Source: an uncultured virus (IMG/VR IMGVR_UViG_3300046798_000046)
Taxonomy: Duplodnaviria; Heunggongvirae; Uroviricota; Caudoviricetes
Direction: 5' to 3' (one strand)
Length of the DNA: 23,110 nucleotides
Virus record (IMG/VR): IMGVR_UViG_3300046798_000046
Shown here piece by piece: positions 2,689 to 19,833 of this stretch. Numbering within the stretch: the first letter of the stretch is position 1; every line of letters begins with the position of its first letter. Under the pieces are notes generated by a model. That model ran no database searches and had not been told where the DNA came from. It worked only from the letters and a program-made list of their open reading frames with translations. A program made the position numbers and the translations under genes.

Positions 2689-3069
2689 TTACGCTCGGCT
2701 TTCTCGCTGGATCTTGTCCAGCCAATCAATGGTTTCGACGGCGTGCTTGGTCGGGGACCCCGATTGCCAGGGCACCGCGCCCAGGTAGTTATAGAGGAGG
2801 TCGTACTCCTGCATCGTCACCTGGATCGATGCGGACGGCGGCGGGCCGTCCTCGGGAGCCGTCTTCAACTGGCGCTGCGGCTCCCCGTTCACCAGCTTCT
2901 TGCCGCAGGGCATCGGCTCGCTGATGCTCTCCAGCTTCTCGAAGAACCCGACTTCCGTGCGAAGGACCTGCATCCCCTTCTTCTCTTGCAGGCTCCCGCC
3001 CAACACGAAGCCGACGAACACGAACTCGAAATGCCGCTTGCCGGTCTCGTCTGAAAAATCAAGAATCAT
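2689..3069 (-). CDS. Hypothetical protein, 126 aa (possible fibre assembly factor by position only)
   Basis: ATGA overlap with upstream HNH stop, 3 nt gap to next gene, globular composition. Confidence 0.78.
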   Translation of the reverse strand: MILDFSDETGKRHFEFVFVGFVLGGSLQEKKGMQVLRTEVGFFEKLESISEPMPCGKKLVNGEPQRQLKTAPEDGPPPSASIQVTMQEYDLLYNYLGAVPWQSGSPTKHAVETIDWLDKIQRESRA

Positions 3070-3704
3070 CGTCGCCTCATGTGTTTCGGCAAGCCTTCAC
3101 GCAACCGGTACAGCGTGCGCCTGCCGATTGCCAAGTAATCCGCAATTTGCGCCATCGAAATTCGCTCGCCGTCCAGCGTCCATCGGCGACGTGGGCCGTC
3201 CAGACGACGGCTTTGGCGCGTGTTCAGGCCCTGCTCGCTTCGCGTGGCCCAGCGACAGTTGCCCGGCCTATAGTGCCCGTCGTTGTCAATCCTGTCTAGT
3301 GTCATCCCTTCCTGGCACCGGCCCATGTCCGCGAGGAAATTCTTGAATGACTCGCGCCAACGATCACAGACCGTGATGCCGCGACCGCCGTAGTTCTCGA
3401 AGCCCGTCGCCGTAGGGTTCAGGCACCGCCCCTTCATTGCCCGCCAGATACTGTACTCGCGGCTCATTCCGCCCCCGCCGTGGCGGCCCGCTTCCCCGTG
3501 TTTCGTTGCACGAGCGCGGGTGCTGTCGGACAGAAAACATCCGCAACTGCTCGCGTGTCCGCTCCGCAGTCCGTCGCCACGCACGCGACATATCACCCCA
3601 CACGCGCACTGACACATCCAGAACGCGCCGTGACCTCGGTGAGCACTCGTGTCCCGCGACAACACCGTCAACCGACCGTAGACGTGACCCGTCTCGTCTT
3701 TCAT
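3066..3704 (-). CDS. Free-standing HNH-type homing endonuclease with N-terminal Cys cluster and C-terminal HTH-like tail
   Basis: Family motifs YGRLTV, WxCxCxCG, SCGC, YGGRGITVCDRW..F..F..DMG, TLDRIDNDGHY.PGNCRWAT..EQ..N. Confidence 0.88.
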   Translation of the reverse strand: MKDETGHVYGRLTVLSRDTSAHRGHGAFWMCQCACGVICRVRGDGLRSGHASSCGCFLSDSTRARATKHGEAGRHGGGGMSREYSIWRAMKGRCLNPTATGFENYGGRGITVCDRWRESFKNFLADMGRCQEGMTLDRIDNDGHYRPGNCRWATRSEQGLNTRQSRRLDGPRRRWTLDGERISMAQIADYLAIGRRTLYRLREGLPKHMRRR

Positions 3705-8520: not shown

Positions 8521-9609
8521 CTAGAAATTGAGAAAGCCGTTGTTGTCGGGCACGCTGCTGCCCCCGCCGTCTTCGCCGCTCCGCGTCAGAAACGTGAGCG
8601 GGGCGTTCTGATTGCGGTATTCCGTTGTCATCCATCCCGGCGTTTGGTTGGTGTACGCCACGTACATTTCATCGTAGATCCCGGGGGCCGAATAGGTGGT
8701 CGCCCCGCCGTTGTTGTAGATCCCGAAGTCGAAGAAGAAGTTGCTGGCCTGCGGGTTGACGTGGGTGCCCGCCACGGCGGTCACGTCCACGCCGTTCGCG
8801 AGGATCCGAATCGAACTGCCATTCCGGAGGAAGGCGAGCCGCACCCAACTGCCGACGACCGCCACGCCAGCGGCGGTGCCCGAGGCTTGCTGGATGCCGG
8901 GCTGGTTCGTGGTGAAGGACATCGATCCATCGTTGTTGACGACGACGTAGTACCCCTCCGATTGATACCCGCCCTTGAAGACGGGCATCTCGGCTCCGGA
9001 CGCATTGTTCAGCGAGGACGGCTTCCACCAGAAGGCGATCGTGAAGTTGTTGCTGGTGAAATCGTAGAAGCCCGGATCGGTGGTCCGGAAGAACTTGCCA
9101 AAGGTGTCGGAGTAGCCGGGGTCGGTCGTATCGATCCCGACGCCGATTTTGCCGGGGACATTCGGGCTGCTCCCGGCATTGACCAGATACCAACTGCCCT
9201 GCGCGGTCGCGTTCAGGACGGCCCCGCCAGACACGATCCCGTGGTAGGCCCCGGCATACCCGGCGTTGTCCCAGGGGGTCGTCGTGCTGCCGTCGGTCGT
9301 GATCGTCGCGTCTCCGTAGTAGAGATAGACCGCCGACCCGTCCGCGAGCGAGGCGACCGAGGCCCACACAACGATGGCGCCGGTGGCGCTGTTGTAGCTG
9401 CCCGACTCCAACTCGAAGGGCAGCGCCGTCCCGGCCAGTCCGTTGTAGGGCCGCAGGTCGAAGCCCGCCGCCGACTGGACGTGCCCGCCGCTCCCGACAA
9501 TCTTGTACCGGGCGTCCTGGTCGCCGATCAACAGCGGGAAGCTGCCGTGCGGCCCGCCCGAGACCTGTCCCGGCTTGACCGTGTAGGACGTGAAGTGCGC
9601 GAAGGCCAC
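8521..9609 (-). CDS. DUF2341-like plus LamG/concanavalin A-like lectin-fold virion protein
   Basis: FPLLI...GGHVQ...GFDLR...LPFELE..Y...TG...VW...YLYYGD; GKIG; FTIAFW, W..LAFLRNGSSIRI..NG, G.YDE...W..TEY.NQ; GTG start overlaps upstream TAG. Confidence 0.82.
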   Translation of the reverse strand: MAFAHFTSYTVKPGQVSGGPHGSFPLLIGDQDARYKIVGSGGHVQSAAGFDLRPYNGLAGTALPFELESGSYNSATGAIVVWASVASLADGSAVYLYYGDATITTDGSTTTPWDNAGYAGAYHGIVSGGAVLNATAQGSWYLVNAGSSPNVPGKIGVGIDTTDPGYSDTFGKFFRTTDPGFYDFTSNNFTIAFWWKPSSLNNASGAEMPVFKGGYQSEGYYVVVNNDGSMSFTTNQPGIQQASGTAAGVAVVGSWVRLAFLRNGSSIRILANGVDVTAVAGTHVNPQASNFFFDFGIYNNGGATTYSAPGIYDEMYVAYTNQTPGWMTTEYRNQNAPLTFLTRSGEDGGGSSVPDNNGFLNF

Positions 9610-10136
9610 TACGGCTCCTCGACCACCTGGGTCACGGCGAGGGCCTGTCGGACCAGGAGGTCCAGCATGATGTCCAGCCGCCGCTTGAGGACGGAGAGTT
9701 CGGCCAGATCGATGTCCGCGCCCGCCTTCTGAAGGACGTTGATCTGCGAGGCGAGCGACGTGCCTTGCGCGACCGCGCCCGCGACCGCTTGCGCGTGCAA
9801 CTGCTCAGGCGTGGGCGGTGGGGGCGGCGGCGGCGGATCGACGCGGGACAGGTCCAGCGTCGTGCCGATCGGCACCATCGACCCGGCCTCGACCACGTTG
9901 AACTGCCGCACATGATCCCCCACGCTCCGGTAGAGCACGTCGTCATTGGGGCACTGGAAGCGGACATCTTCGACCACGGTCGAAATCATCTTCGAGACGC
10001 CGTCATCCACGCGGAAGCGCCCGCTCCGCAGGTACTGATGCAGGGTGGACCGGTCATCGTTGGCAAACTCGACCTCAAAGAGGAAGCCGAGGCCGTAGAC
10101 GCTCTCTTCGCGGGTGAGGACGGTGGCGTGGAACAT
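9609..10136 (-). CDS. Hypothetical protein, 175 aa, poly-Pro linker plus helical C-terminus (fibre chaperone-like architecture)
   Basis: AGGAG RBS just before ATG at 10136 (MFHATVL...); PPPPPPPPTPEQ linker. Confidence 0.75.
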   Translation of the reverse strand: MFHATVLTREESVYGLGFLFEVEFANDDRSTLHQYLRSGRFRVDDGVSKMISTVVEDVRFQCPNDDVLYRSVGDHVRQFNVVEAGSMVPIGTTLDLSRVDPPPPPPPPTPEQLHAQAVAGAVAQGTSLASQINVLQKAGADIDLAELSVLKRRLDIMLDLLVRQALAVTQVVEEP

Positions 10137-10144
10137 GGGAACTC

Positions 10145-11377
10145 CTAGAATCCAGTCGCGAGCGCGGTCAGATCCCACTTGGTATCCGCCGCGTTGTACC
10201 GGAACCCGATGTACATGGTCTTGCTGGTGGTCGTCGTGATCGGCAGGGCCACGCTCCCGGCGCGATAGATGGCGTTCCAGGCGAGCGTTTGCGGCGTGCC
10301 GTTGTCCTTGACCCGGATGGTCAGATAGCTGCCATCGACGGGGGTGCCGGTGGGCGCGGCGAAGGTCGCGGTCGCGGCGAGGGCCGTGAGCAGATAGAGG
10401 TTGCGAGCACCCGCACCGACAGGAGCCGGGGTCGCGGACGAGACCGCCGACGTAACCAGTTCGGTGGGGGCACCCGCGACCCCGCCGATGACGATCCAGT
10501 TGGTGCCGTTCCAGCGTGCGAGGACGCCGTTCGTGCCGCCGGTCGTCACGATGGCCCCCGCCACCGCCGTCGTGCTGTTGTTGACATTCACAAGATCGCC
10601 AACGACCCCTGGCACAATCCCGGCGAACGGACGCTCCCCCATTTGGATTTGGGCCGTGATGATCTGATTCGCGTTCACGTTACCCGCAAATATCCCCGCG
10701 CCCCCGCGAATGAGATAGAAGGGTCGCCGCGTCGAGACGCCTGCGTCTGATTCTTCATCAATCGACAAATACCCGCCGGTCAACGTCCCAATGCGCCATC
10801 GCCGCGCATCCACCGCAGCGGAAGACTCGATCAGGACGACCGACGCGGGCGATCCGATCAGGCTCGGACTATTGCTGAACACCGGAGCCGTCCCCGCGCC
10901 CTGCGAAATCAAGACCTGACCGAGCGGAGCCGTGGGGAGGGAGGCCCCGCCGCCTCCACTCCCACTCGCCGCACTGAGATGGGTCCCGACCCCGCGTGTC
11001 ATCGTCACCGACGCCGAGCCGCTCGTGAACGCCGTCGCGCGCACGCGGACGCGCACGATCCCCCAATTCGGGAGCGCGAACTGCCCCGGCGCGGTCGTGG
11101 TCGTCGCAGACGCGCCGGTCGCGGGATTGACCAGCCCGATCGCGAGCCAGTTGGTCCCGTCCGAGGTCGCCTCGAAGGTCAGCGTCCCGGTGAATGTCCC
11201 GCTGACCTGAAGGGTCAGGGACGGGACGCTGCCGACCTGGAAGTTCGCGCACGCCGCCGCCACGGAGCAGGCGGCTCCGCTGTCCACCACCGTAATCGAG
11301 ACGGGTCCCGTGACCTGCGCGCCGACCCGGCTCGTGAGGAGCAGGGCGGCCAGTAGGCCGATACTGAGTCGTCGCAT
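10145..11377 (-). CDS. Head fibre / capsid decoration-like protein with predicted N-terminal signal peptide
   Basis: AAGGAGG RBS; MRRLSIGLLAALLLTSRVGA|Q; beta-sandwich motif QVSGTFTGTLTFEATSDGTNW...RVRVRATAFTSGS; fibre motif GQVLISQGAGTAP; directly after the coat gene. Confidence 0.8.
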   Translation of the reverse strand: MRRLSIGLLAALLLTSRVGAQVTGPVSITVVDSGAACSVAAACANFQVGSVPSLTLQVSGTFTGTLTFEATSDGTNWLAIGLVNPATGASATTTTAPGQFALPNWGIVRVRVRATAFTSGSASVTMTRGVGTHLSAASGSGGGGASLPTAPLGQVLISQGAGTAPVFSNSPSLIGSPASVVLIESSAAVDARRWRIGTLTGGYLSIDEESDAGVSTRRPFYLIRGGAGIFAGNVNANQIITAQIQMGERPFAGIVPGVVGDLVNVNNSTTAVAGAIVTTGGTNGVLARWNGTNWIVIGGVAGAPTELVTSAVSSATPAPVGAGARNLYLLTALAATATFAAPTGTPVDGSYLTIRVKDNGTPQTLAWNAIYRAGSVALPITTTTSKTMYIGFRYNAADTKWDLTALATGF

Positions 11378-11440: not shown

Positions 11441-12664
11441 TTAGCCTGCGATACGGCAGGCCAGTTCGGGACGCAGCACGGCCCACCCATAAAGGATGTC
11501 CAATCTGCAAGGAAAGCGGTCGGTGTTGATGTCGTAGGCCCGAATCATCCGGATGGACAGCCCCAACTGTTTGTCCGACATGCGGGCGGCCTGCACGACG
11601 CCGGATTCCGGCAGGGGCAGGTCGGCGCACGCCAGGGTGAACGCATCCGGGTGGAAGGCCACGCCGGTCGGGGACACCGTGCCCGCGACCCCGCTCCCGC
11701 CCGTGATGATCGCGCTATCGGCGGCGAGCGCCGTCACGGTCTGACCCGCGCCGGTCGCGACGATCGCGGGCGAAATCGGCATCGCCGCCTTGCCTGCCAC
11801 GTCGCTCGCGACATTGGCGAGCACCGTGAACTGCTGGAGGGCGCCCGTGCTCTGATGGTTCTGCACGTTGGTGCCGAAGACCCCGGCAATCGTGAACGTG
11901 TCGCCCTTGTTCAGCCGGGGGCCGACCGCCGCCGTGAAGCCCTTGACGAGCAGGGTGCCGCCGGTCTGGTTCGGGCCATCGACGAGCAGGTTGGCGCCCG
12001 CCAGCCCGCCGGGACCGGCCGTCAGGCTCGCGCAGTTCTGATCCATGTAGAACTTGAACCCGGCGGCCCGCCCCATCATGCCCTTCGCGTACTGCTCGGC
12101 AATCAGGTTGGACTGCTGGAACAAGCCCTTCAAGGCATCGACGAGCGTGGCTTCCATGAGGGGGGTGATGACCACGGTCAACTGCCCGTCGAGCGGGACG
12201 CTGGCGTCCTTGAGCTTGACCCCGGCCTTGAGGTAGGTGAGCAGATCGGCGGGGGTCACCCCGGGGGTGCCGACCGAGGCGTAAATCTGCTTGGTCAACT
12301 GCAAGCCGTCGTAGTCGAGTTTGTTGGCGATGGTCGCAATCGCGGGGGTCAGGAATCGCTTGGAGAAGTCATCGATCGAGAGCGCCATATCCTGCGAGGA
12401 CGGCGAGATGTCCACGCCGAACTGCGTATCGAGCGTGACGGGCACGCTCGTTTCCACCATGTCTTCCAGGATGAGCGTCTGCCCGAGGCGGCCCTGGTAG
12501 CGGGGCGGCTTGCGGACATTCAGCACCGTGCCGATTTTGGCCCCCGAGATGCCAAATTCGCTGCTGTACTGCCGGGTGATCTGCTTGGTGAAGGTGAGCG
12601 AGTTTTCAAGGACCCGCAAGGCTTCGCGTGTGATCATACTGATCGTAAGGAACACATTGGGCAT
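11441..12664 (-). CDS. Major capsid protein, P22 coat (gp5) family, 407 aa
   Basis: MPNVFLTISMITREALRVLEN, GAKIGTVLNVRKP, LSIDDFSKRFL.PA, G.MGRAAGF.FYMDQN, GDTFTIAGV, AFH.DAF.LA..DLPLP, YDIN.D....RLDILYGW..LRPELACR; GGAG RBS before ATG 12664. Confidence 0.96.
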   Translation of the reverse strand: MPNVFLTISMITREALRVLENSLTFTKQITRQYSSEFGISGAKIGTVLNVRKPPRYQGRLGQTLILEDMVETSVPVTLDTQFGVDISPSSQDMALSIDDFSKRFLTPAIATIANKLDYDGLQLTKQIYASVGTPGVTPADLLTYLKAGVKLKDASVPLDGQLTVVITPLMEATLVDALKGLFQQSNLIAEQYAKGMMGRAAGFKFYMDQNCASLTAGPGGLAGANLLVDGPNQTGGTLLVKGFTAAVGPRLNKGDTFTIAGVFGTNVQNHQSTGALQQFTVLANVASDVAGKAAMPISPAIVATGAGQTVTALAADSAIITGGSGVAGTVSPTGVAFHPDAFTLACADLPLPESGVVQAARMSDKQLGLSIRMIRAYDINTDRFPCRLDILYGWAVLRPELACRIAG

Positions 12665-12925
12665 TGGACTGACTCCGACGCGCGCAGGGGCGCATCCCAG
12701 CAAAACCGGTGGTGTCGCTGGCCGAGGCGACGGCAGGGAGCGGCCGGAGCATCACGTAGGGGCGGGACGTGATGAACCCGTCGTGCAGGCGTCTGACCGT
12801 GAGACACTCACGGGATCGGGGACGAGGCGATCCGCCGGGTCGTCCAACGTACGTCGCGCGTTCTGGGGGCTGGGGCGCGCGGCGAGGTCCCCGTTCGGCC
12901 CGGAGGCCGATCCGCCCGATGTCGC
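12665..12925 (-). promoter_or_regulatory. Structured intergenic leader between scaffold and coat genes
   Basis: At least six short inverted repeats in 260 nt (see findings). Confidence 0.5.
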
Positions 12926-13936
12926 TTACCGGCCCCCGCCTGCCGCCCTCCAGGCGGCATACTCGGCGTAGGTCATTTGTTCCGGGTCTTTCGACGGCGT
13001 CACCGCGCTCGGATTCACGCGCGGGGGCGGCGCCGGAGCACGCGAGGCCACGGGGCGCGGGGCGGGAACACCGGCCGGGGGTCGCACGTCCGCACCGGGC
13101 CGACTCGTCGCCGGGGGGGCAGACGGAGTCAGCAACCCGCGCTCGTGCAACGCCTCAAGTTTCCCCATCTCGATAAACTGCGCGGCGGGTGGCAACCGGG
13201 TGATCCGGTCGAGTTCCGCTGGGTGCTTCATCAAGTGGTACCCAAGATCGACCCCGACCGGCGAGTTCTGAATGACCAGTTGCACTTCGGCGGTGACCGG
13301 CAGATGGGTCGCCGAGGCCAGGACCTCGTTGTAGTCCGGGTACGCCTCGCGCGCCTGGGCGAGCCGTCCCAGGTAGTCCTGTTCGGCCTGGACCTGGACG
13401 GCGCGTTGCTGGGCGTCCCACTGCTGTTGCGCCGCCTGCTGCCGTTCCTGCTGGAGCCGGGCGATCACGCGCTGTTCGGTCGCGGCGGTATTCTGCGCGA
13501 GCTTCCAGTCGGTCAGCGCCTCCATGTAGTCGGCAAAGCTCGGGTAGTCGTCTTCGGTCGGCTTGGGCGCGACCTCGACCGCCGGGACCGCCTCGACCGG
13601 GGCCGGGACGGATCCCGGCGTCCCCTCCGCTGGCGGGGCCTGGGGAATCGCGCGAATCCGGGCGAGTTCGGCTTCGAGTTGGTCGGCGCGGGCCTTCTCT
13701 TCGTACCGCTCGCGCGTCAATTGATTGATGCGGAGTTCGACCGGGGCCTTCTCTTTGGGTTCCTCGGCGACCGGCGCCGGGGTCGCCGGGGTCACCGGAT
13801 CGGGCGGGGTCGGCGCGTCCACCGGCGGCAGGCCGAGCGTGGCGCGCAGTTCGGCTTCGGTCTCGCTCACGGAACTGAGCACGACCTCGTTCTGGTTCTG
13901 GACCGGAGGAATCTCAGCCGCCATGGTGGTCTGCAT
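12926..13936 (-). CDS. Capsid scaffolding protein (start 13936 or 13924)
   Basis: Between portal and coat; RINQLTRER, P..DDY...DY.EAL.DWK, YPDY.EV, L.YHL.KHP.E..RI..L......E.GKLE, MTYAEYAAWR C-terminus. Confidence 0.9.
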   Translation of the reverse strand: MQTTMAAEIPPVQNQNEVVLSSVSETEAELRATLGLPPVDAPTPPDPVTPATPAPVAEEPKEKAPVELRINQLTRERYEEKARADQLEAELARIRAIPQAPPAEGTPGSVPAPVEAVPAVEVAPKPTEDDYPSFADYMEALTDWKLAQNTAATEQRVIARLQQERQQAAQQQWDAQQRAVQVQAEQDYLGRLAQAREAYPDYNEVLASATHLPVTAEVQLVIQNSPVGVDLGYHLMKHPAELDRITRLPPAAQFIEMGKLEALHERGLLTPSAPPATSRPGADVRPPAGVPAPRPVASRAPAPPPRVNPSAVTPSKDPEQMTYAEYAAWRAAGGGR

Positions 13937-13942
13937 CAATGA

Positions 13943-16216
13943 TTAGGGAGTCTGCCCTGAATTGGGGGCGGGCGCAAGGGCCGCGTCCCGGATCGCGGCC
14001 TCGCGGGCCTGCTGCGCGTCGTGCTGCGCGAGCGCGGCCTCGTGGCCGTGATCGAGGTGCTGGGTCAGCCGCGCGTGGTCGGTCTCGAACCGGTGCGCGG
14101 CCTGCTCGGTCTGGAGCTTGATCTGCGCGATCTGGACCTCGACGTTCAGGCGCATCGCCTCGATCCGTTCTTTCGACTGGATCTCTTCGCGGGCGATGAC
14201 GATCTTGGCCTGCGCGTCGGCGTGCCGCTGATCGACCTTCAGTTGCATGTCCTTGAGCGCCTGGGTGGCGGCCTGAAGGGCCTGTTCCTGCATCTGGCCC
14301 ATCTGTTTCATCTGCGCCATCTCGGCCTGGGCCTTCGGCGGGATGGGCGGGTCGTCGCCCTCGTCCTGCAAGTTCGGCGGCAGCGCCTTCTTCAGGCGGG
14401 CCGAGGCGGTCGCCGCCCCGGGCCAATCCATGTTCTCGACCATCAGGTCGCCGAGCAGTTGGAAGGCGGTGTCGTTGCTCGTGCAGATTTGGGTCAGCGC
14501 CTCCAGGGCTTCCTGGCGCTTGCTCGCCATCGACGGGCCGGTGCTGATCGCCACGTCGTACCGGCCGACCGACAGGTCGTAGACGTGTTTCACATCGTCG
14601 GGGAGCACTTGGCCCTCCAGGTCCTGGGGCGGCGCCCCGGCGTGAACCATCACGGTCTTCGGCTTGTCGTCCAGGCCGAGGATCCGCAGGACGCGCGGCT
14701 CATCATAGATGTGGGGGATGAGGTCCACGATGATGCGGCCGACCGCCCGAATGGCCCGCGACAAATTGTCGAGGAAGTTGCTGTTCGCCATCTCGCCCTG
14801 CTGTTGCAAGGCGGTGATGGCTTTGCCCGATTGTTCCCCCTGGCGCTGGCCGAGCGATGGCTCGAACAGGCCCATCGTCGCCTTCAGGTCGCTGTCGGCT
14901 TGGCTGATGGCGTGGGTAATCGCCATGATCGCCGGTTCGGCCACGTTGCGCTGGGGCAGCGGGGCCAACTGGCCGTTGACCATGACGGGCTTGACTTGGA
15001 GGTACGGGAACGAGCGGCGGTTGGCTTGCCGCCACTGGGCCTCGAACCCCTCGAACTGACCGGCGTAGCCCACATACGGGGCCTTCGGGGCCAGGGCGAG
15101 GGTTTCCGCGAGCGCGGTATTCTGGAAATTATACAGCCGCTGCGGATCCTTGGCGTCCCGGACCATGCCCCGGTAGTCGAGTTCCCCGTTCAGGTCCAGT
15201 TCCTCGCCAATCACCGGGATGATGGGGATGCGGTTGCCGGGCCACGCGCGGCCATCGGTCCGATCGTCGTTGCCTTCGAGGATCGCGACGGCATTGATGA
15301 GCGCGCACTTGATCTGCTTGGTCGGGACCGTGCGGCGTTTGAGTTCCCGGGTCGCCAGTTGGTCGGCGGCGGGCCACTTCCGGTAGATGTCCTCGAACAC
15401 CGATTGGCGTTGGCCGTCCGGCCATTCGACCAGCAGGAGTTCCCGGTCCACGACATCGGCCAGCCAGTAGGCCGCCGTCCGGACCTTGCCTTCGGGCATC
15501 CAGTCCTGCGCGCGTTCCCCGCCCGCGACGAACTCGGCGAGGCTCGCCATGTCGCCGTCGTCCTTGAACCGCTGTTGGTACTCGTGCTTCGGGATGTCCT
15601 CGATGATGAAGCCGAAGCGGGCATCCGACCCGTCCGGTTCCTGAATCGTCGGGTCCAGGTAGATCGAGAACGGGTTGCGGACCCGCTTGATGCGGATTTC
15701 CTGCGCGAAGGAATCTTCCGCCGAGTATTCGGTATCGACCAGCAGGTACCCGCGTCCGATGCGGGCCTGGGCTTCGGCGGCGGTCGTGTAGGCGACCTGG
15801 GCATCGGACTGCGTCTCGATGTGCCGGATGATCCCCATGAGAATTTCCGCCGTCTTGGGGTCGGCGCCGCTGTCGATCGGATTGACTTCGATGCCGGGCC
15901 GGTTGGACCGGGTCGCGTTGACCACTTGGCGAATGAACTGCGGGAGGCGGTTGATGGTCAGGCAGGGGCGTTGATCGATGATGCGCTCGCGCTTGACATC
16001 CTCGGCCCACTGCTCGCTCGCCACGAACTGGAGGTCTTCCTGCTGCTTGGCCCGCATCGTCCCTTCGGCGGCCTGCACCAACTGGAACCGCTCGCGCGCC
16101 ACCTGGAGAAACTTGGCGACTTGCTGGCGCTTCCCGTCCTCGCCCGCCTGGATCGCCGCGCCGTCACTCGTGACGAGCGTCAGGGTGTCGCGGGCCGAGA
16201 GGGCGGTCTCAGACAT
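13943..16216 (-). CDS. Portal protein, P22 gp1 family, ~757 aa
   Basis: EDL.F...EQW, RPCLTINRLPQFIRQVVN, G.VRDAKDPQRLYNF, LAPKAP, EQSGKAI...QQQG, IP.IYD..R..RILG, DLSVGRYDV....GPS..SKRQEA, long C-terminal coiled coil. Confidence 0.96.
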   Translation of the reverse strand: MSETALSARDTLTLVTSDGAAIQAGEDGKRQQVAKFLQVARERFQLVQAAEGTMRAKQQEDLQFVASEQWAEDVKRERIIDQRPCLTINRLPQFIRQVVNATRSNRPGIEVNPIDSGADPKTAEILMGIIRHIETQSDAQVAYTTAAEAQARIGRGYLLVDTEYSAEDSFAQEIRIKRVRNPFSIYLDPTIQEPDGSDARFGFIIEDIPKHEYQQRFKDDGDMASLAEFVAGGERAQDWMPEGKVRTAAYWLADVVDRELLLVEWPDGQRQSVFEDIYRKWPAADQLATRELKRRTVPTKQIKCALINAVAILEGNDDRTDGRAWPGNRIPIIPVIGEELDLNGELDYRGMVRDAKDPQRLYNFQNTALAETLALAPKAPYVGYAGQFEGFEAQWRQANRRSFPYLQVKPVMVNGQLAPLPQRNVAEPAIMAITHAISQADSDLKATMGLFEPSLGQRQGEQSGKAITALQQQGEMANSNFLDNLSRAIRAVGRIIVDLIPHIYDEPRVLRILGLDDKPKTVMVHAGAPPQDLEGQVLPDDVKHVYDLSVGRYDVAISTGPSMASKRQEALEALTQICTSNDTAFQLLGDLMVENMDWPGAATASARLKKALPPNLQDEGDDPPIPPKAQAEMAQMKQMGQMQEQALQAATQALKDMQLKVDQRHADAQAKIVIAREEIQSKERIEAMRLNVEVQIAQIKLQTEQAAHRFETDHARLTQHLDHGHEAALAQHDAQQAREAAIRDAALAPAPNSGQTP

Positions 16217-16490
16217 GGATCGGCCCATCCGGGGCGAGCGCGTGCAGGTCCTCGCGGACGGTGTCACAGATCATCCGGAAGATGGCCCGGTAGTCCTCGT
16301 CGAAGAACTGATACGCCTCGTAGGCGCCCGACCGCTTCGCCGTCCGGACGAAGTCGCGCTCGCCCGCCAGACACACGGCGAGCCGGAGGGGGTGGTCGGT
16401 CGTCCAGACGAACATCATCGCGGCACACACCGCCCAGTCCCGCCGGGGCAGCGCCCGGATGACCTCGGGGACCGTCAGGATCGTCGGCAT
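16209..16490 (-). CDS. Hypothetical protein, 93 aa
   Basis: Starts 1 nt after upstream stop; its stop overlaps the portal start region. Confidence 0.72.
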   Translation of the reverse strand: MPTILTVPEVIRALPRRDWAVCAAMMFVWTTDHPLRLAVCLAGERDFVRTAKRSGAYEAYQFFDEDYRAIFRMICDTVREDLHALAPDGPIHV

Positions 16491-16491
16491 C

Positions 16492-16656
16492 TTATTGCTT
16501 GAGGGCGCGCGCCTTGTGGAGGGGGTTGGGCCGCGCCAGCGGGTGCGCGGTGTGGAGCGCGGCGGCGACCGAGGACTTCACCGAATGGCCGGTCGCGACC
16601 ATCTCCTTGATGTTCTTGGAGATGACTTTCCGGGACGTGCCCTTCTCAAGCGGCAT
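16492..16656 (-). CDS. Small basic phage protein of the MPL.KG.S.K.IS.NI.E....G.....AVA.AL type, 54 aa
   Basis: AGGAG RBS before ATG 16656; recognisable motif common near podovirus terminase/portal genes. Confidence 0.85.
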   Translation of the reverse strand: MPLEKGTSRKVISKNIKEMVATGHSVKSSVAAALHTAHPLARPNPLHKARALKQ

Positions 16657-16846
16657 CGGGGTCTCCTGGGGGCGGCACGTCAAAGGGGACAATCGTCGCG
16701 AGCAGCTTTCGCACCTCGGCCCGCATCGCCGGGGTCGTCTGCGCGACCAGGGCCTCCAGGTGGGCGAGGTCTCGAATCTCGCTCCCCAGGACCCGGAGCC
16801 GCGCGCCGTCGTCGGTCGGCAGTTCCGCCGTCAGGCGTCCCCGCAT
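16646..16846 (-). CDS. Hypothetical protein, 66 aa
   Basis: Fills the gap exactly (4 nt after previous stop, overlaps next start); helical composition. Confidence 0.62.
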   Translation of the reverse strand: MRGRLTAELPTDDGARLRVLGSEIRDLAHLEALVAQTTPAMRAEVRKLLATIVPFDVPPPGDPDAA

Positions 16847-16850
16847 GGCG

Positions 16851-17207
16851 CTACGCCTCGGCCTCGTCGGGGCCGGGGGCTTCGCCTGCCGGGGTCTCTT
16901 CCGCAGGCGGCTCGGTCGGCGCGTCGGTCGGCGTCGGGCTGAAGGCTTCCGTCATGTACCCGACCAGATCGTCGATCGAACTGAACGAGTGCTTGCTGGG
17001 CCGGGTGAAGGCCAGCGCATCGCCGATCTCCCCGCCTTTGGCGGGCGGGGCCTGGAAGGTGGTCACGACAAAGCCGCCGTTGTCCGTCCGCTCCACTTCC
17101 ATGCGCTCGATGTCGTGCGGGGCGGTCTCCCCGCCCGAATCCTTCGAGGCCGCAGGCGCCGTGGGGGGGCCACTCATCTTGACGACCGACATCGCGGGAG
17201 CAGGCAT
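16851..17207 (-). CDS. Hypothetical acidic protein, 118 aa
   Basis: AAGGAG RBS; globular core IERMEVERTDNGGFVVT...KHSFSSIDDLVGYM. Confidence 0.8.
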   Translation of the reverse strand: MPAPAMSVVKMSGPPTAPAASKDSGGETAPHDIERMEVERTDNGGFVVTTFQAPPAKGGEIGDALAFTRPSKHSFSSIDDLVGYMTEAFSPTPTDAPTEPPAEETPAGEAPGPDEAEA

Positions 17208-17245
17208 GGGTCAGACTCCTTGGGCTTCCGCCCGAAACGGGGGCG

Positions 17246-17254
17246 AGTATAGCA
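17246..17254 (-). promoter_or_regulatory. Candidate extended -10 promoter (TGnTATACT) upstream of the portal-containing unit
   Basis: Minus strand reads TGCTATACT in a 53-nt intergenic gap, followed by a CGCCC/GGGCG hairpin and an RBS. Confidence 0.5.
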
Positions 17255-17260
17255 CGGCCC

Positions 17261-17512
17261 TCAGTCGTCGTCGCGCGGATCGGGCGGGGGCCGGACGCCA
17301 TCGACGGTCCAGACCTCGAACCACTGGGGACCGTAGGTACACGTCAGGCCGCTCGGGCGGTAGGTGTGGTAGCCCCGGTCGGGCGTGGTCTGGGGTCCCG
17401 CGTCCGCGTCCGCGAAGGTGACGGGCACCGGCAACGGCACCCGCCACTCTCGCGCCTCCCGGACCTCTTGCAGCCGCGCGCGCGCGAACGGCAGCAGTAA
17501 CAGGACCTGCAT
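17261..17512 (-). CDS. Hypothetical protein, 83 aa
   Basis: Fills gap in the operon, ATG start; no recognisable motif. Confidence 0.55.
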   Translation of the reverse strand: MQVLLLLPFARARLQEVREAREWRVPLPVPVTFADADAGPQTTPDRGYHTYRPSGLTCTYGPQWFEVWTVDGVRPPPDPRDDD

Positions 17513-17527
17513 CCCTATCTATTGATC

Positions 17528-17932
17528 TTAGGGATGCCCGAAGATGTCGAACCGGCCCAGCCACACATCTGCCGACACGTCGTAGCTCCAGAGCAGCCGC
17601 ACGCCGCTCCCGCCCGGGACCACGCCCGTGAACACGTACCCCTCCGGCGGGGGTCCCCAGGTCGTCAGCCCCGCCGCCACCCAGGCTTCCGCGAGTTGGT
17701 CAATCGTCGGTCCCCACGCCGCGTCCTGGGCCTCGCGCGGATCCAACCGGCAGACCGCCGAGGCCAGCCGCGTCAGCGCCGGAGGCGCGGCCACGTCCCC
17801 GCCCGCCGCCGCGCAGACCCCGCCTTTCGCCGTCACCATCGCCGCGAACCGCTCATTGGCCGCCGTGACCAGCCCCGCCGCCGACTCCGCGCTCTTGCTG
17901 TCCTTCGTCTCGCGATCCTTCACCATCGCCAT
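17528..17932 (-). CDS. Hypothetical protein, 134 aa, whose C-terminus resembles the coat protein C-terminus
   Basis: GSGVRLLWSYDVSADVWLGRFDIFG versus coat GLSIRMIRAYDINTDRFPCRLDILYG; 3 nt after HNH stop. Confidence 0.75.
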   Translation of the reverse strand: MAMVKDRETKDSKSAESAAGLVTAANERFAAMVTAKGGVCAAAGGDVAAPPALTRLASAVCRLDPREAQDAAWGPTIDQLAEAWVAAGLTTWGPPPEGYVFTGVVPGGSGVRLLWSYDVSADVWLGRFDIFGHP

Positions 17933-17935
17933 GTG

Positions 17936-18310
17936 TCACCCCTGTCTATGCTCACGGCCATGACAGGCTCGACAGAGCCAGGAGACCGTGCGCCGTTGCG
18001 TGTAGTCCTCGTGATGCGCTTGCATCGCCGACGCCCGCCCACACCGGGTACACGTCGAAGGGGCCTGCACGCGGCCCCGCTTCCGGCCTTGCCGAATCGA
18101 CTCCCGCGCGACGTGCTTCTGCTTCTCCGCTGGCGTTTGCCGCCGTCGCTGCTGCGCGAGCCGATGCTGCTCGCAACACGCATCACACCGAATCGCGCTC
18201 CGTGAACTGCGCGGCTGACCGCAACACCGGCACCGCCCTGCCGCAATCTGTTCCCGCTGCCACTTGTAGACCGAGACCCGCCGCCCCTCGAATCGACGCG
18301 CTACATCCAT
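17936..18310 (-). CDS. HNH-family zinc-binding endonuclease-like protein
   Basis: CxxCG...AHHEDY...V.WLC..CH...H motif plus N-terminal CxxC pairs; overlaps terL stop. Confidence 0.82.
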   Translation of the reverse strand: MDVARRFEGRRVSVYKWQREQIAAGRCRCCGQPRSSRSAIRCDACCEQHRLAQQRRRQTPAEKQKHVARESIRQGRKRGRVQAPSTCTRCGRASAMQAHHEDYTQRRTVSWLCRACHGREHRQG

Positions 18311-19833
18311 CCCGCGAGTCTATCAACCCACAAGGCCGCGAGCACGAAGATCCCCATCCAGCTTTGGCCCTGCTGGCCCAGGTCGTACGGACTCGCCTGC
18401 ACGCGCCGCGTCGGCGTCTCCCCCTCCGGCGGCCGATGCCTCGTCGCCAACCCCCGCAAGGCATCGGCCCCGTGGGTCGCGAAGTTCCGCACCGGCGTCC
18501 CCGTGAACTGCCCGAGACTCGCGTTCCAGACTTTCCGGTAGTTTCGCAGACATTCGATCCCGCGCGCGCACTGCACGGCGTCGAACCAGCAGCGGGCCAG
18601 GAACGCCCGGGTCGCATTGATCCCGTCCCCGAGATCGAGCTTGGCCGTCACCTCGAAGTTGACCCCGAGCGCCCGCGCCGACTCAATGCGGCTCTTCCCG
18701 GTCCCCAACTCGCGCACCTTGATGTCATGCGGGCCATTATGCGTCCCGTACACATACGGCTTCTCCTGGAGCACCTTCACGTAGTGCGGGAGACCCTCGC
18801 CACTATTCTCGTAGTAATCAATGAGCCGAATCTCCCCGCTCCGGAGACTCTGGCTGAACCAGATGGTCGTGCTGTCATCCACCCCGAGGTCCCAGTCCGT
18901 ATCGACCGGCAGCGCCGGGTCATACGGCACCGCCCGAATCCGGCCCTCCGTCTTCGCGACCTGCATCTCCTTGGCGAAGAACGCCCCCTTGATCGCCGCA
19001 TCCGCCGACAGGTACCACTCCTGGTCGTAGTCGTCCTGACTCATCAACCCCTGCACAATCAAGTCCCGGTCATCGGCCATCGCCTGACTGAGCAGTTGGA
19101 TCGTAATGCCTTCTTCGGTCGCCAGACTCGTATCCACGTCCTGCCACAGACTGAACCACGTCTCGGGCGCCTTCGTCGCCGCCTCCCACGTCCGATACAA
19201 ATGATCCTTGCCCTTGATGGTGCCCAAAAAGATCGCATACCCGAGATGGTCCCCGAGCGCCTTGCTCAACACCGACCCGAAAATCTCCGGATCCTGCTGG
19301 CTATACTCATCAAAACTCAGCCCGCTGAACGCCGGACCGCGCAACGAATCCGGATGATCCGCCCCGAACAACTGAAACTTGTTCCCATTCGGATACCGCA
19401 CGAGGAGTTCCTGCTCGTTCAAGACCACGCCCCGCACCCCCCGCGCATAGTGCTTCACCTTGTCCCACACCGCCAGCTTCGCCACCTTGTAGGTCGGCAT
19501 CACATGCCCGTAATGCCTGCCCCCCGGCGGATGAATCAGTTCCTCCAGATCCTGCTCCTTCCGCGCCAACCCCGGCTTCAGAAACAGCAACCGCCCCCGC
19601 TCCCACGCGTCCACCAGCGCCGCCCGCTGATGATGGTTAATCACCGCCGTCGATTTCCCACACCGCCGATGCAACACGAGCACCGCAAACCGCTTGTAAC
19701 TGGCATGAAACGCCTTCGCCCAATTCCTCGGCCGATACGGAATCACCCGCGACTCCCCCGGCACCTCCTTCACCCCCGGCCGCCACCCCGGCGCCTTCCC
19801 CGGCCCCGACCGCACCCCCTTCTCAAACGCCAT
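18301..19833 (-). CDS. terL: Terminase large subunit
   Basis: IPYRPR; Walker A HRRCGKST; GAD.PDSLRG; Walker B LSFDEY; GT.KGK; nuclease WDLG.DD.T.IWF.Q, PHD..VRELGTG, HGADALR. Confidence 0.97.
   Translation of the reverse strand: MAFEKGVRSGPGKAPGWRPGVKEVPGESRVIPYRPRNWAKAFHASYKRFAVLVLHRRCGKSTAVINHHQRAALVDAWERGRLLFLKPGLARKEQDLEELIHPPGGRHYGHVMPTYKVAKLAVWDKVKHYARGVRGVVLNEQELLVRYPNGNKFQLFGADHPDSLRGPAFSGLSFDEYSQQDPEIFGSVLSKALGDHLGYAIFLGTIKGKDHLYRTWEAATKAPETWFSLWQDVDTSLATEEGITIQLLSQAMADDRDLIVQGLMSQDDYDQEWYLSADAAIKGAFFAKEMQVAKTEGRIRAVPYDPALPVDTDWDLGVDDSTTIWFSQSLRSGEIRLIDYYENSGEGLPHYVKVLQEKPYVYGTHNGPHDIKVRELGTGKSRIESARALGVNFEVTAKLDLGDGINATRAFLARCWFDAVQCARGIECLRNYRKVWNASLGQFTGTPVRNFATHGADALRGLATRHRPPEGETPTRRVQASPYDLGQQGQSWMGIFVLAALWVDRLAGWM

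Follow-up and report, generated by a model that had tools for sequence, protein, structure and literature searches.

A small, probably coat-derived P-domain protein encoded in the head module of a P22-related soil phage

Introduction

The shells of tailed phages, herpesviruses and encapsulins are all built from the HK97 fold. The vertex protein gp24 of phage T4 (PDB 1yue) is a full-fold paralogue of the capsid protein that is built into the shell. The evolution of the HK97 fold by domain accretion has been well studied; stand-alone derivatives at the level of single domains are almost unknown, and the only described case that was found is that of the cellular A-domain encapsulins. These Family 4 proteins are cellular and mostly archaeal, are encoded in enzyme operons and, within the available text of the source, were not found in phages (PMC8346489). 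A second gene with an HK97 fold, Ccm of SaPIbov5, is derived from an MCP; as far as the accessible part of the source describes it, Ccm is encoded by a satellite, has the full fold and redirects the capsid shape of the helper (PMC8569155).

The architecture of the P22 coat protein, gp5, serves as the frame of reference for the present analysis. In the domain map given in the available part of PMC9965877, gp5 comprises an N-arm (residues 2-30), an F-loop (34-50), an E-loop (51-78), a P-domain (31-33, 79-127 and 358-416), an A-domain (128-221, 346-357 and 417-430) and an I-domain (222-345). That source also locates the contacts of the scaffold on gp5: the C-terminal helices of the scaffold attach to the N-arm and, in the spine helix, to R101 (PMC9965877). 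In the accessible text of 10.1101/626804, W61 of the E-loop pegs into a pocket of the neighbouring P-domain formed by I366 and W410, and the C-terminal segment of the P-domain adds contacts between capsomers.

The subject of this work is a short gene, referred to here as the mini-coat gene, whose product resembles the C-terminal part of such a coat protein. A reading of the DNA made from the sequence alone had described it as a small paralogue of the coat C-terminus encoded as a separate gene, and it is compared below with the coat protein, with related loci and with the systems described above.

Genomic Context

The window, that is, the whole stretch of 23,110 nt that was analysed, is a virus record (IMGVR_UViG_3300046798_000046) of a P22-related soil phage. 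It contains a head module of P22 type in which every gene lies on the minus strand. The large terminase gene (terL, 18301..19833; phrog_2 and phrog_2472) is followed by a gene for an HNH-type endonuclease of 124 aa (17936..18310; phrog_2340, E 2e-12), which adjoins the mini-coat gene on its upstream side. The candidate mini-coat gene itself (17528..17932, 134 aa, taken from the ORF list) has a GC content at third codon positions (GC3) of 0.896 and a homologue designated P0123, and its ATG lies 3 nt from the stop codon of the HNH gene. The rest of the accessory island, 16209..17512, holds the ORFs o83 (17261-17512), o118 (16851-17207) and o93 (16209-16490) together with two ORFs of 66 aa (16646-16846, and 16492-16692, the latter matching phrog_2423). 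These are followed by the genes for a portal protein of P22 type (13943..16267; PF16510, E 6e-160), a scaffolding protein (12926..13939; phrog_8865, E 3.5e-28) and a major coat protein of P22 type (11441..12664; PF11651, 115.6 bits, E 3e-33). The coat protein has 407 aa counted from MPNVF and is 100% identical to P0002, also of 407 aa, while its ORF opens at a TTG at 12703 and is 420 aa long. No sigma-70-like promoter or terminator was found between terL and the portal gene in a simple scan. The mini-coat gene would be co-transcribed late with those for the terminase, portal, scaffold and coat.

Twelve of the 80 coat-related viral loci collected for comparison show both terL and the portal gene, and in 10 of these 12 the spacing between the two genes is only -41 to +257 nt. 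In the window lineage, the interval spans about 2 kb and holds seven small ORFs. Because terL and portal nearly abut in 10 of 12 relatives and are about 2 kb apart here, the mini-coat gene is assigned to a lineage-specific accessory island. Two other loci have an enlarged interval with ORFs resembling o118 and o93. In L008, it measures 1.2 kb and contains three small ORFs without a mini-coat gene; in L042, a comparable island is found without the HNH gene or a mini-coat gene. The L042 locus also carries a stray coat fragment, which is a copy of the N-arm. Throughout the 80 loci, a second coat-like C-terminus was found only in L016, which is discussed below.

The tempo of divergence can be approached through the closest relatives of the two proteins. 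The coat P0003 is 88% identical to the window coat, and the mini-coat homologue P0123 is 45% identical to the window mini-coat. Each of these relatives is encoded on a contig of 45,200 nt, and their placement on one and the same contig is suggested only by this equal length. If they do share a contig, the mini-coat apparently diverges far faster than the coat.

Coding Status and Selection

The mini-coat ORF starts with an ATG preceded by a Shine-Dalgarno sequence, GGGGTG, 8 nt upstream. Its GC contents by codon position, 0.70/0.58/0.90, resemble those of the coat and portal genes. A second haplotype (L012) differs from the window at 15 of the 405 nt of the ORF. In the annotated frame, these differences amount to nine synonymous and three non-synonymous codon changes, whereas the other five frames would give 0-4 synonymous and 8-12 non-synonymous changes. 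The mini-coat gene is real and is under purifying selection, since the nine-to-three synonymous bias is restricted to the coding frame and the ORF is intact in both haplotypes. The description of a separate gene is thereby borne out, and the neutral decay that would mark a pseudogene is not what the comparison with L012 shows. The L012 haplotype, with its mini-coat ORF intact, recurs in contigs from other soil or rhizosphere runs, and no variant beyond this haplotype was found in further contigs of other runs. The 24 runs listed include no RNA data set with the gene. Two haplotypes that otherwise are nearly identical differ in a few patches, and these include both the mini-coat and the coat gene.

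Resemblance to the Coat Protein

The part of the mini-coat that most directly resembles the coat is a C-terminal beta-hairpin at residues 108-132 (GVRLLWSYDVSADVWLGRFDIFG; 17537..17611, minus strand), homologous to the hairpin of the coat P-domain at residues 368-391 (11492..11563, minus strand); the match was obtained with BLASTP, hhalign and MAFFT. Mini-coat residues 108-131 align with residues 381-404 of the 420-aa coat ORF, equivalent to 368-391 of the 407-aa protein, with 8/24 positions identical and 15/24 positive (25.0 bits, pairwise E 6e-4 in BLASTP). In a search of the window's own six-frame ORFs of at least 50 aa (261 ORFs, 35,601 aa in total), the coat is the best match of the mini-coat apart from itself, at E 0.045, the next being at 0.72. 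Taken alone, this match is borderline, because reading a window all against all fairly often yields such matches. A longer MAFFT alignment with the coat C-terminus gives 16/48 identical positions and places PPPEGYV over PLPESGVV. The likeness to the coat C-terminus was thus correctly recognised in the sequence-only reading, and its extent of about 45 aa is backed by MAFFT and by the alignment to a bridging protein, L145mini, described below.

Profile methods point in the same direction with varying strength. When A2, a small alignment of the mini-coat family, was compared with 36 coats in hhalign, the hairpins were aligned at E 1.3e-4, with a probability of only 53.8% over 23 columns. The columns that are invariant in the hairpins of the 36 coats are R372, Y377, D382 and R387, and the hairpin motif ..R..R.YD[IV]..D.[FW]..R[LF]D[IVM] is present in the mini-coat. 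An HMM built from the collected coats matches the mini-coat at E 0.02 in a search of 20 sequences. No Pfam family matches the mini-coat at E<=0.01, so that it falls below the gathering threshold of PF11651 (24 bits), and no match was found in PHROGs. Nor did hhalign with alternative alignments find an N-terminal match between mini-coat and coat. In the ESM Atlas, 26 of the best 30 clusters carry PF11651, and the best three, short proteins of 95-133 aa, score 0.91; mini-coat residues 1-95 give PF11651 at only 0.81. These Atlas matches are a lead only, because few features are shared (140/256).

The family to which the mini-coat belongs is very narrow, and mini-coats are rare. An exhaustive search of 1.84 billion representatives returned five matches at E<=1e-3, namely two true relatives and three Kelch-repeat proteins. 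The only distant homologue among them is P0123 (179 aa), which shows 45% identity to the mini-coat from end to end, apart from two insertions; between the two, the hairpin is invariant, as are a number of columns near the N-terminus. Its match to the window coat is stronger than that of the mini-coat (9/21 identical, 30.4 bits, E 2e-5). Word-indexed searches with the mini-coat returned only its own 98% cluster, or that cluster and P0123. Searches of viral contigs with the mini-coat, terL, A2 or either of the bridging proteins gave near-identical copies only, or nothing, and A2 had no match in metagenome contigs. A tblastn search of 50,697 phage records with the mini-coat gave only three matches at E=8, in the NAMPT gene of a Vibrio phage.

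The six-frame ORFs of 86 loci, 12,699 in all, were also searched with an HMM of the mini-coat family. This HMM recovered 107 ORFs at E<=10, of which 75 are positive with the coat HMM; its own family occupies ranks 1-7, every ORF at ranks 8-59 is positive with the coat HMM, and the mini-coat hairpin is invariably aligned to the coat hairpin. Since the coats in this ranking are kin, it counts as one event. As a sequence comparison, it shows that the match falls on what the coat family conserves. The hairpin was further expressed as a 37-bit DNA motif, YD[IV]xxDxTnnxxRFD[IM]. Throughout IMG/VR, this motif has 20 sites: 16 in full-length coats (each with a coat HMM E<=2e-74), two in the mini-coat family, one in L016mini, the second bridging protein, and one that is unrelated. 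Metagenome contigs contain 39 sites, of which 18 resemble coats at E<1e-3; in bacterial and archaeal genomes (596 Gb), four of 15 are coat-like and the other 11 are unrelated, which is about the number expected by chance. A DNA pattern that combines the motif with a stop (five codons past the D, then TAA or TGA) occurs in IMG/VR only at the three known loci.

Bridging Mini-Coats

Two further proteins connect the mini-coat with complete coats. The first, L016mini (L016:1407-1859, 150 aa), emerged when the collected loci were scanned with the coat HMM. Its gene lies two positions upstream of the portal gene, and the coat of the same phage (6127-7353) shares 46% identity with that of the window. 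L016mini matches this coat at E 4e-14, with 23/48 identical positions in the C-terminal strands and a collinear spine-helix HSP at E 0.004. The source annotates it as a hypothetical protein of a Terriglobales MAG, and its neighbours include a GroES-like gene and no HNH gene. An association between HNH and mini-coat genes was considered and set aside, since L016mini has no HNH neighbour.

The second protein, L145mini (L145:264-905, 213 aa), has its own ATG and was found by the motif scan of metagenomes. Its residues 1-118 match residues 1-116 of the window coat (37% identical, E 2e-17), and a second, collinear block matches residues 127-184 to coat 343-402 (55% identical, E 4e-15). Its N-arm has been kept, as have the regions of GAKIG and of the E-loop, and a helical tail of 37 aa is present in addition. 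Because its blocks can be placed on the published domain map of gp5, L145mini is described as a coat minus the A and I domains. It aligns with L016mini continuously across the deletion junction (84 aa, E 4e-11). The mini-coat, too, aligns across this junction, with residues 79-131 matching L145mini (32.0 bits, E 1e-6, 20/58 identical) and residues 64-131 matching L016mini (29.3 bits, E 6e-6, 20/76 identical); the mini-coat family compared with L145mini in hhalign reaches a probability of 80% and E 1.4e-5 over 103 columns. Each of these bridging alignments takes most of its score from the one hairpin of 24 residues.

The architecture without A and I domains, in which the spine helix is joined directly to the C-terminal P-domain strands, is thus found in three lineages. 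The window and L016 carry a coat gene beside the mini-coat gene in the same genome (the L145 contig measures only 1.2 kb). The mini-coat, P0123 and L016mini stop no more than five residues past the hairpin and read RFD at the position of the RLD of most coats. Neither PHROGs nor Pfam has a match for L016mini, and L145mini has only a sub-threshold Pfam match of 19.8 bits. The mini-coat is only 26-34% identical to L145mini and L016mini over 58-76 aa. Independent origins of the mini-coats are possible, because in MAFFT alignments none has another mini-coat as its nearest neighbour, full coats being closer to each.

Domain Architecture and Fold

The alignments to the bridging proteins allow most of the mini-coat to be placed on the P-domain. 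Residues 54-95 (17648..17773, minus strand) would comprise a P-domain strand, the equivalent of the spine helix and the deletion junction, because the mini-coat alignments cross that junction to L145mini and L016mini; the structure model has a strand at 54-62 and a helix at 70-86. By alignment, residues 96-132 correspond to the C-terminal P-domain strands of the coat, and the mini-coat ends three residues past the hairpin, where the P-domain stops. The initial view that the N-terminal 85 or so residues are unrelated to the coat consequently needs revision. It may hold for residues 1-50, which show no coat signal in sequence, and fails for residues of about 54-95, which align with the strand and spine helix of the coat via the intermediates. 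The equivalents of the A and I domains (gp5 128-357 and 417-430) are missing from the 134-aa protein, with a junction like that of L145mini, where coat 116 is joined to coat 343. As judged from the sequences, the mini-coat keeps only the core of the P-domain, in which the spine helix stands between a single strand and the beta-hairpin of the C-terminus; no E-loop can be recognised in its sequence.

Structure prediction was carried out with AF2 on a three-sequence alignment and gave a model with a pLDDT of 65 and a pTM of 0.61. It contains helices at residues 2-35 and 70-86 and strands at 54-62, 110-118 and 123-132; the first of these is a predicted long N-terminal helix (17828..17929, minus strand). 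VIA aligned model residues 11-134 to residues 2-413 of gp5 in the P22 procapsid, with the N-terminal helix on the N-arm. The placement of the segment in the HK97 P-domain, as originally proposed, agrees with this result, since gp5 358-416 lies within the P-domain in the available text of the gp5 map and the last residue of the model aligns to gp5 413. The model of P0123 is a generic alpha/beta plait without an HK97 match, so that the likeness to the N-arm is confined to the mini-coat model. A Foldseek search with the mini-coat model found nothing at E<=1e-3 in PDB or BFVD, the best values being 0.59 and 0.065, respectively; the best BFVD entry is A0A6J5NY35, an uncharacterised phage protein of 116 aa. 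The predicted folds are consistent with the sequence argument and constitute no independent proof of it.

The resemblance could also have arisen without descent from a coat, either because the hairpin (YD...D.W..R.D) is convergent or because the C-terminus comes from a blade of a Kelch-type propeller. The comparison of mini-coat and coat is borderline by itself (25 bits, hhalign probability 54%), the P0123 model is generic, and the best pairwise match of mini-coat residues 97-132 is a Kelch blade of P0124 (17/36 identical, 32.3 bits), which outscores the coat; apart from the family, the exhaustive search returned three long Kelch-repeat proteins and nothing else. However, the likeness to Kelch is not a family trait, as P0123 matches P0124 at E 0.068 and the coat at E 2e-5. 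The library-wide E-values of the Kelch proteins are sums over 5-8 repeats that all fall on one segment of the query, as do all five HSPs of P0124 on mini-coat residues 82-134. Pfam finds no Kelch family (PF01344 and related) in the mini-coat, and neither the coat nor L016mini matches the Kelch hairpin. The alignments to L145mini and L016mini, moreover, extend through the helix upstream of the hairpin, and in viral DNA the hairpin motif is almost exclusive to coats. A Kelch origin was therefore rejected, since the likeness is not common to the family, involves a single segment and lacks a Pfam Kelch match, and it is read as convergence on a common hairpin pattern. An origin of the hairpin outside the coat family is highly improbable on this evidence, and the mini-coat is very probably a P-domain module derived from the coat.

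Proposed Role

Without an A-domain, the mini-coat would be unable to close a capsomer. Since closure is impossible for such a protein, it would act in solution, on a partner that binds the rim. The role proposed here, with roughly an even chance of being right, is that of a soluble protein that imitates the rim of a coat subunit before assembly and would act by competitive binding. One candidate partner is a host factor that recognises the coat protein, in which case the mini-coat would be a sensor antagonist or decoy; the other would come from the phage itself, as the E-loop of its coat or as its scaffold, in which case the mini-coat would modulate assembly. Defences triggered by structural proteins include CapRel and Lit/Gol. 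Sensors of capsid proteins are also documented, as in the MCP sensors Avs7/Dsr1 covered by the available part of 10.64898/2026.01.04.697583; the window itself encodes no such sensor. The accessory status and apparently fast divergence of the gene speak for a host sensor, and its place in the head operon, together with the GroES-like gene next to L016mini, speaks for a partner from the phage itself, either coat or scaffold; the two kinds of partner would be about equally probable. Each carries its own hazard, as a mimic of the trigger could activate a sensor instead of blocking it, and a mimic of the rim could poison the phage's own assembly. A more far-reaching proposal is that P-domain-only mini-coats form a new class of accessory proteins, made late, which would occupy rim-recognising immune sensors without triggering them and so effect counter-defence by self-mimicry. 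This proposal is offered tentatively and is rather doubtful at present.

Several other roles have to be weighed against that of a soluble mimic. The mini-coat could be a minor structural protein built into the capsid at special sites, either at the portal vertex or internally through recruitment by the scaffold. Such a protein would be expected neither to be missing in most relatives, in 10 of 12 of which terL abuts portal, nor to have its only counterpart among the 80 coat-related loci in L016, and it would hardly evolve, as the mini-coat apparently does, much faster than the coat. It would also have to enter the shell without an N-arm signal in its sequence and without an A-domain for joining a capsomer. 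A structural role is consequently unlikely, and the variable island together with the apparently fast divergence fits an accessory role better than a fixed structural one such as that of a portal-vertex adaptor. Alternatively, the ORF could be the relic of a partial coat duplication or of illegitimate recombination, an open frame without a function of its own. The very narrow family, with two true relatives among 1.84 billion representatives, the adjoining gene of a mobile HNH endonuclease and the stray copy of the coat N-arm in L042 would suit such an origin. However, the frame-restricted bias of nine synonymous to three non-synonymous changes, an ORF that has stayed intact in the two haplotypes and in P0123, where the hairpin is invariant despite an overall identity of 45%, a GC3 of 0.90 like that of core genes, and a tightly coupled start with a Shine-Dalgarno sequence are those of a gene that is maintained, and the same deletion architecture has been retained in three lineages. 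It is therefore quite improbable that the ORF is a relic.

A further reading sees in the mini-coat a weapon against competing phages, that is, a dominant-negative fragment that would cap the capsomers of related phages in the same cell, or cause them to mis-assemble, but would be tolerated by the coat of its own phage. It draws on the retention of the surface that accepts the E-loop in P22, as described in the accessible text of 10.1101/626804, in a protein that could not complete a capsomer. It would also suit a gene that is accessory and apparently quick to diverge, and one that shares with the coat gene a place among the few diverged haplotype patches. However, a fragment expressed from the late operon would come into play only when the phage has already begun its own assembly, and the hairpin is no nearer to foreign coats than to its own, with 16-17/48 identical positions for all. 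A weapon of this kind is thus very unlikely, and the soluble rim mimic is retained as the working proposal.

The significance of such a protein would depend on its partner. As a P-domain core under selection, the mini-coat would be a natural reagent that isolates the rim surface for contacts with the E-loop, between capsomers and with the scaffold. If it modulates assembly, it would offer a handle on the capping or nucleation of capsomers; if its target is capsid-sensing immunity, no counter-defence before it would have been built from a piece of the very trigger.

Comparison with Known Systems

No description of an HK97 protein without an A-domain, or of a truncated capsid copy acting as decoy or modulator, was found in open-access papers and bioRxiv. 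On that literature, the suggestion of the sequence-only reading that this is possibly an undescribed gene class stands. To our knowledge, no anti-defence protein that targets a sensor of structural proteins is itself a shortened version of what that sensor recognises. In being a small accessory protein that would counter a defence competitively, the proposed mini-coat resembles DSAD1, which acts against DSR2 (available text of PMC11087589).

The closest relative in sequence is the coat family itself, including the phage's own coat. With P22 gp5 and other members of PF11651, the mini-coat has in common the P-domain hairpin, the strand and spine helix recognised via the intermediates, and the same late operon. 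It differs from them in being one third of their length and in lacking the A-domain, the I-domain, the terminal A-domain strand and a recognisable E-loop. Because it scores below the Pfam threshold and has neither the A-domain nor the I-domain, the mini-coat is regarded as a derivative and not as a shell-forming member of PF11651. T4 gp24 and SaPIbov5 Ccm, in contrast, retain the full HK97 fold and sit in shells, whereas the mini-coat has the P-domain core only. The Family 4 A-domain encapsulins (PF08967/DUF1884) are the nearest parallel in architecture, as each is a stand-alone protein of about 100 aa that represents a single HK97 domain after the remainder was lost (available text of PMC8346489). 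The mini-coat has no Pfam match to PF08967, and the parts that it retains align to P-domain segments of the coat. According to the same part of PMC8346489, the Family 4 encapsulins retain the A-domain and lose the P-domain; the mini-coat is the opposite.

Coat fragments, and confirmed and possible relatives of the mini-coat

Coat-derived sequence is also found in L042, a related viral locus that has no mini-coat. In a 93-aa ORF upstream of terL (L042:1112-1393, + strand), the coat N-arm recurs as a clear copy (positions 5-37 of the coat HMM, E 3.7e-11), fused to a twin-arginine-like N-terminus, RRGFLAALG...ALDPERLLWVPGAKT. This ORF is a further stray coat fragment within the same phage group. 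The next ORF (143 aa, L042:1645-2076, + strand) shares the N-terminus of about 35 aa with the 93-aa ORF and is without the coat part.

P0123, a distant homologue of the mini-coat (179 aa), carries a Pro/Gly-rich insertion of about 35 residues (within residues 108-155), for which disorder is predicted (pLDDT <50). Because part of this insertion lines up with PLPxG, a segment shared by coats and other mini-coats, the segment preceding the hairpin may have been duplicated in P0123. Among viral predictions, the closest structural neighbour of the mini-coat model is A0A6J5NY35 (BFVD), an uncharacterised 116-aa protein of an uncultured phage (E 0.065, probability 0.90, TM 0.42-0.47 over 111 columns), and this protein may itself be another mini-coat. 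The top pairwise score for the last 36 residues of the mini-coat (residues 97-132, window 17537-17644) comes from a bacterial Kelch-repeat protein, in which single blades are identical to this segment at 17 of 36 positions (47%), a resemblance read as convergence.

Haplotype mosaic and neighbouring genes

The haplotypes of the window and of L012, the second haplotype, form a mosaic. Identity is 100% in HNH, the small island ORF o93 and portal, and at least 99.8% in scaffold and terL. The diverged patches comprise the mini-coat gene (17528-17932), with 15 differences in 405 nt, the island ORF o83 (17261-17512), where identity is 86% and indels occur, and the coat gene (11441-12664), which is 97.4% identical, with 27 synonymous and 2 non-synonymous changes.

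A second HNH endonuclease gene (3066-3704, - strand; 212 aa; phrog_374, E 7e-64), larger than the first, lies among the tail-fibre genes, so the window phage has two free-standing HNH genes in its structural region. Downstream of the coat gene, a 410-aa protein (10145-11377, - strand) combines a hydrophobic, signal-like N-terminus with a C-terminal phrog_3030 match. It is separated by a 189-aa ORF (9609-10178) from a 362-aa protein (8521-9609, - strand) that contains a lectin/glucanase domain of the concanavalin-A-like type (PF13385, E 1e-13). The 410-aa and 362-aa products may be accessory proteins of the capsid surface or of the tail.

In L016, a related locus with its own mini-coat, a 133-aa ORF (L016:1856-2257, + strand) lies between mini-coat and portal; it has weak similarity to GroES, a co-chaperonin (phrog_3188, E 9e-4). 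In phage T4, folding of the capsid protein requires a phage-encoded GroES analogue.
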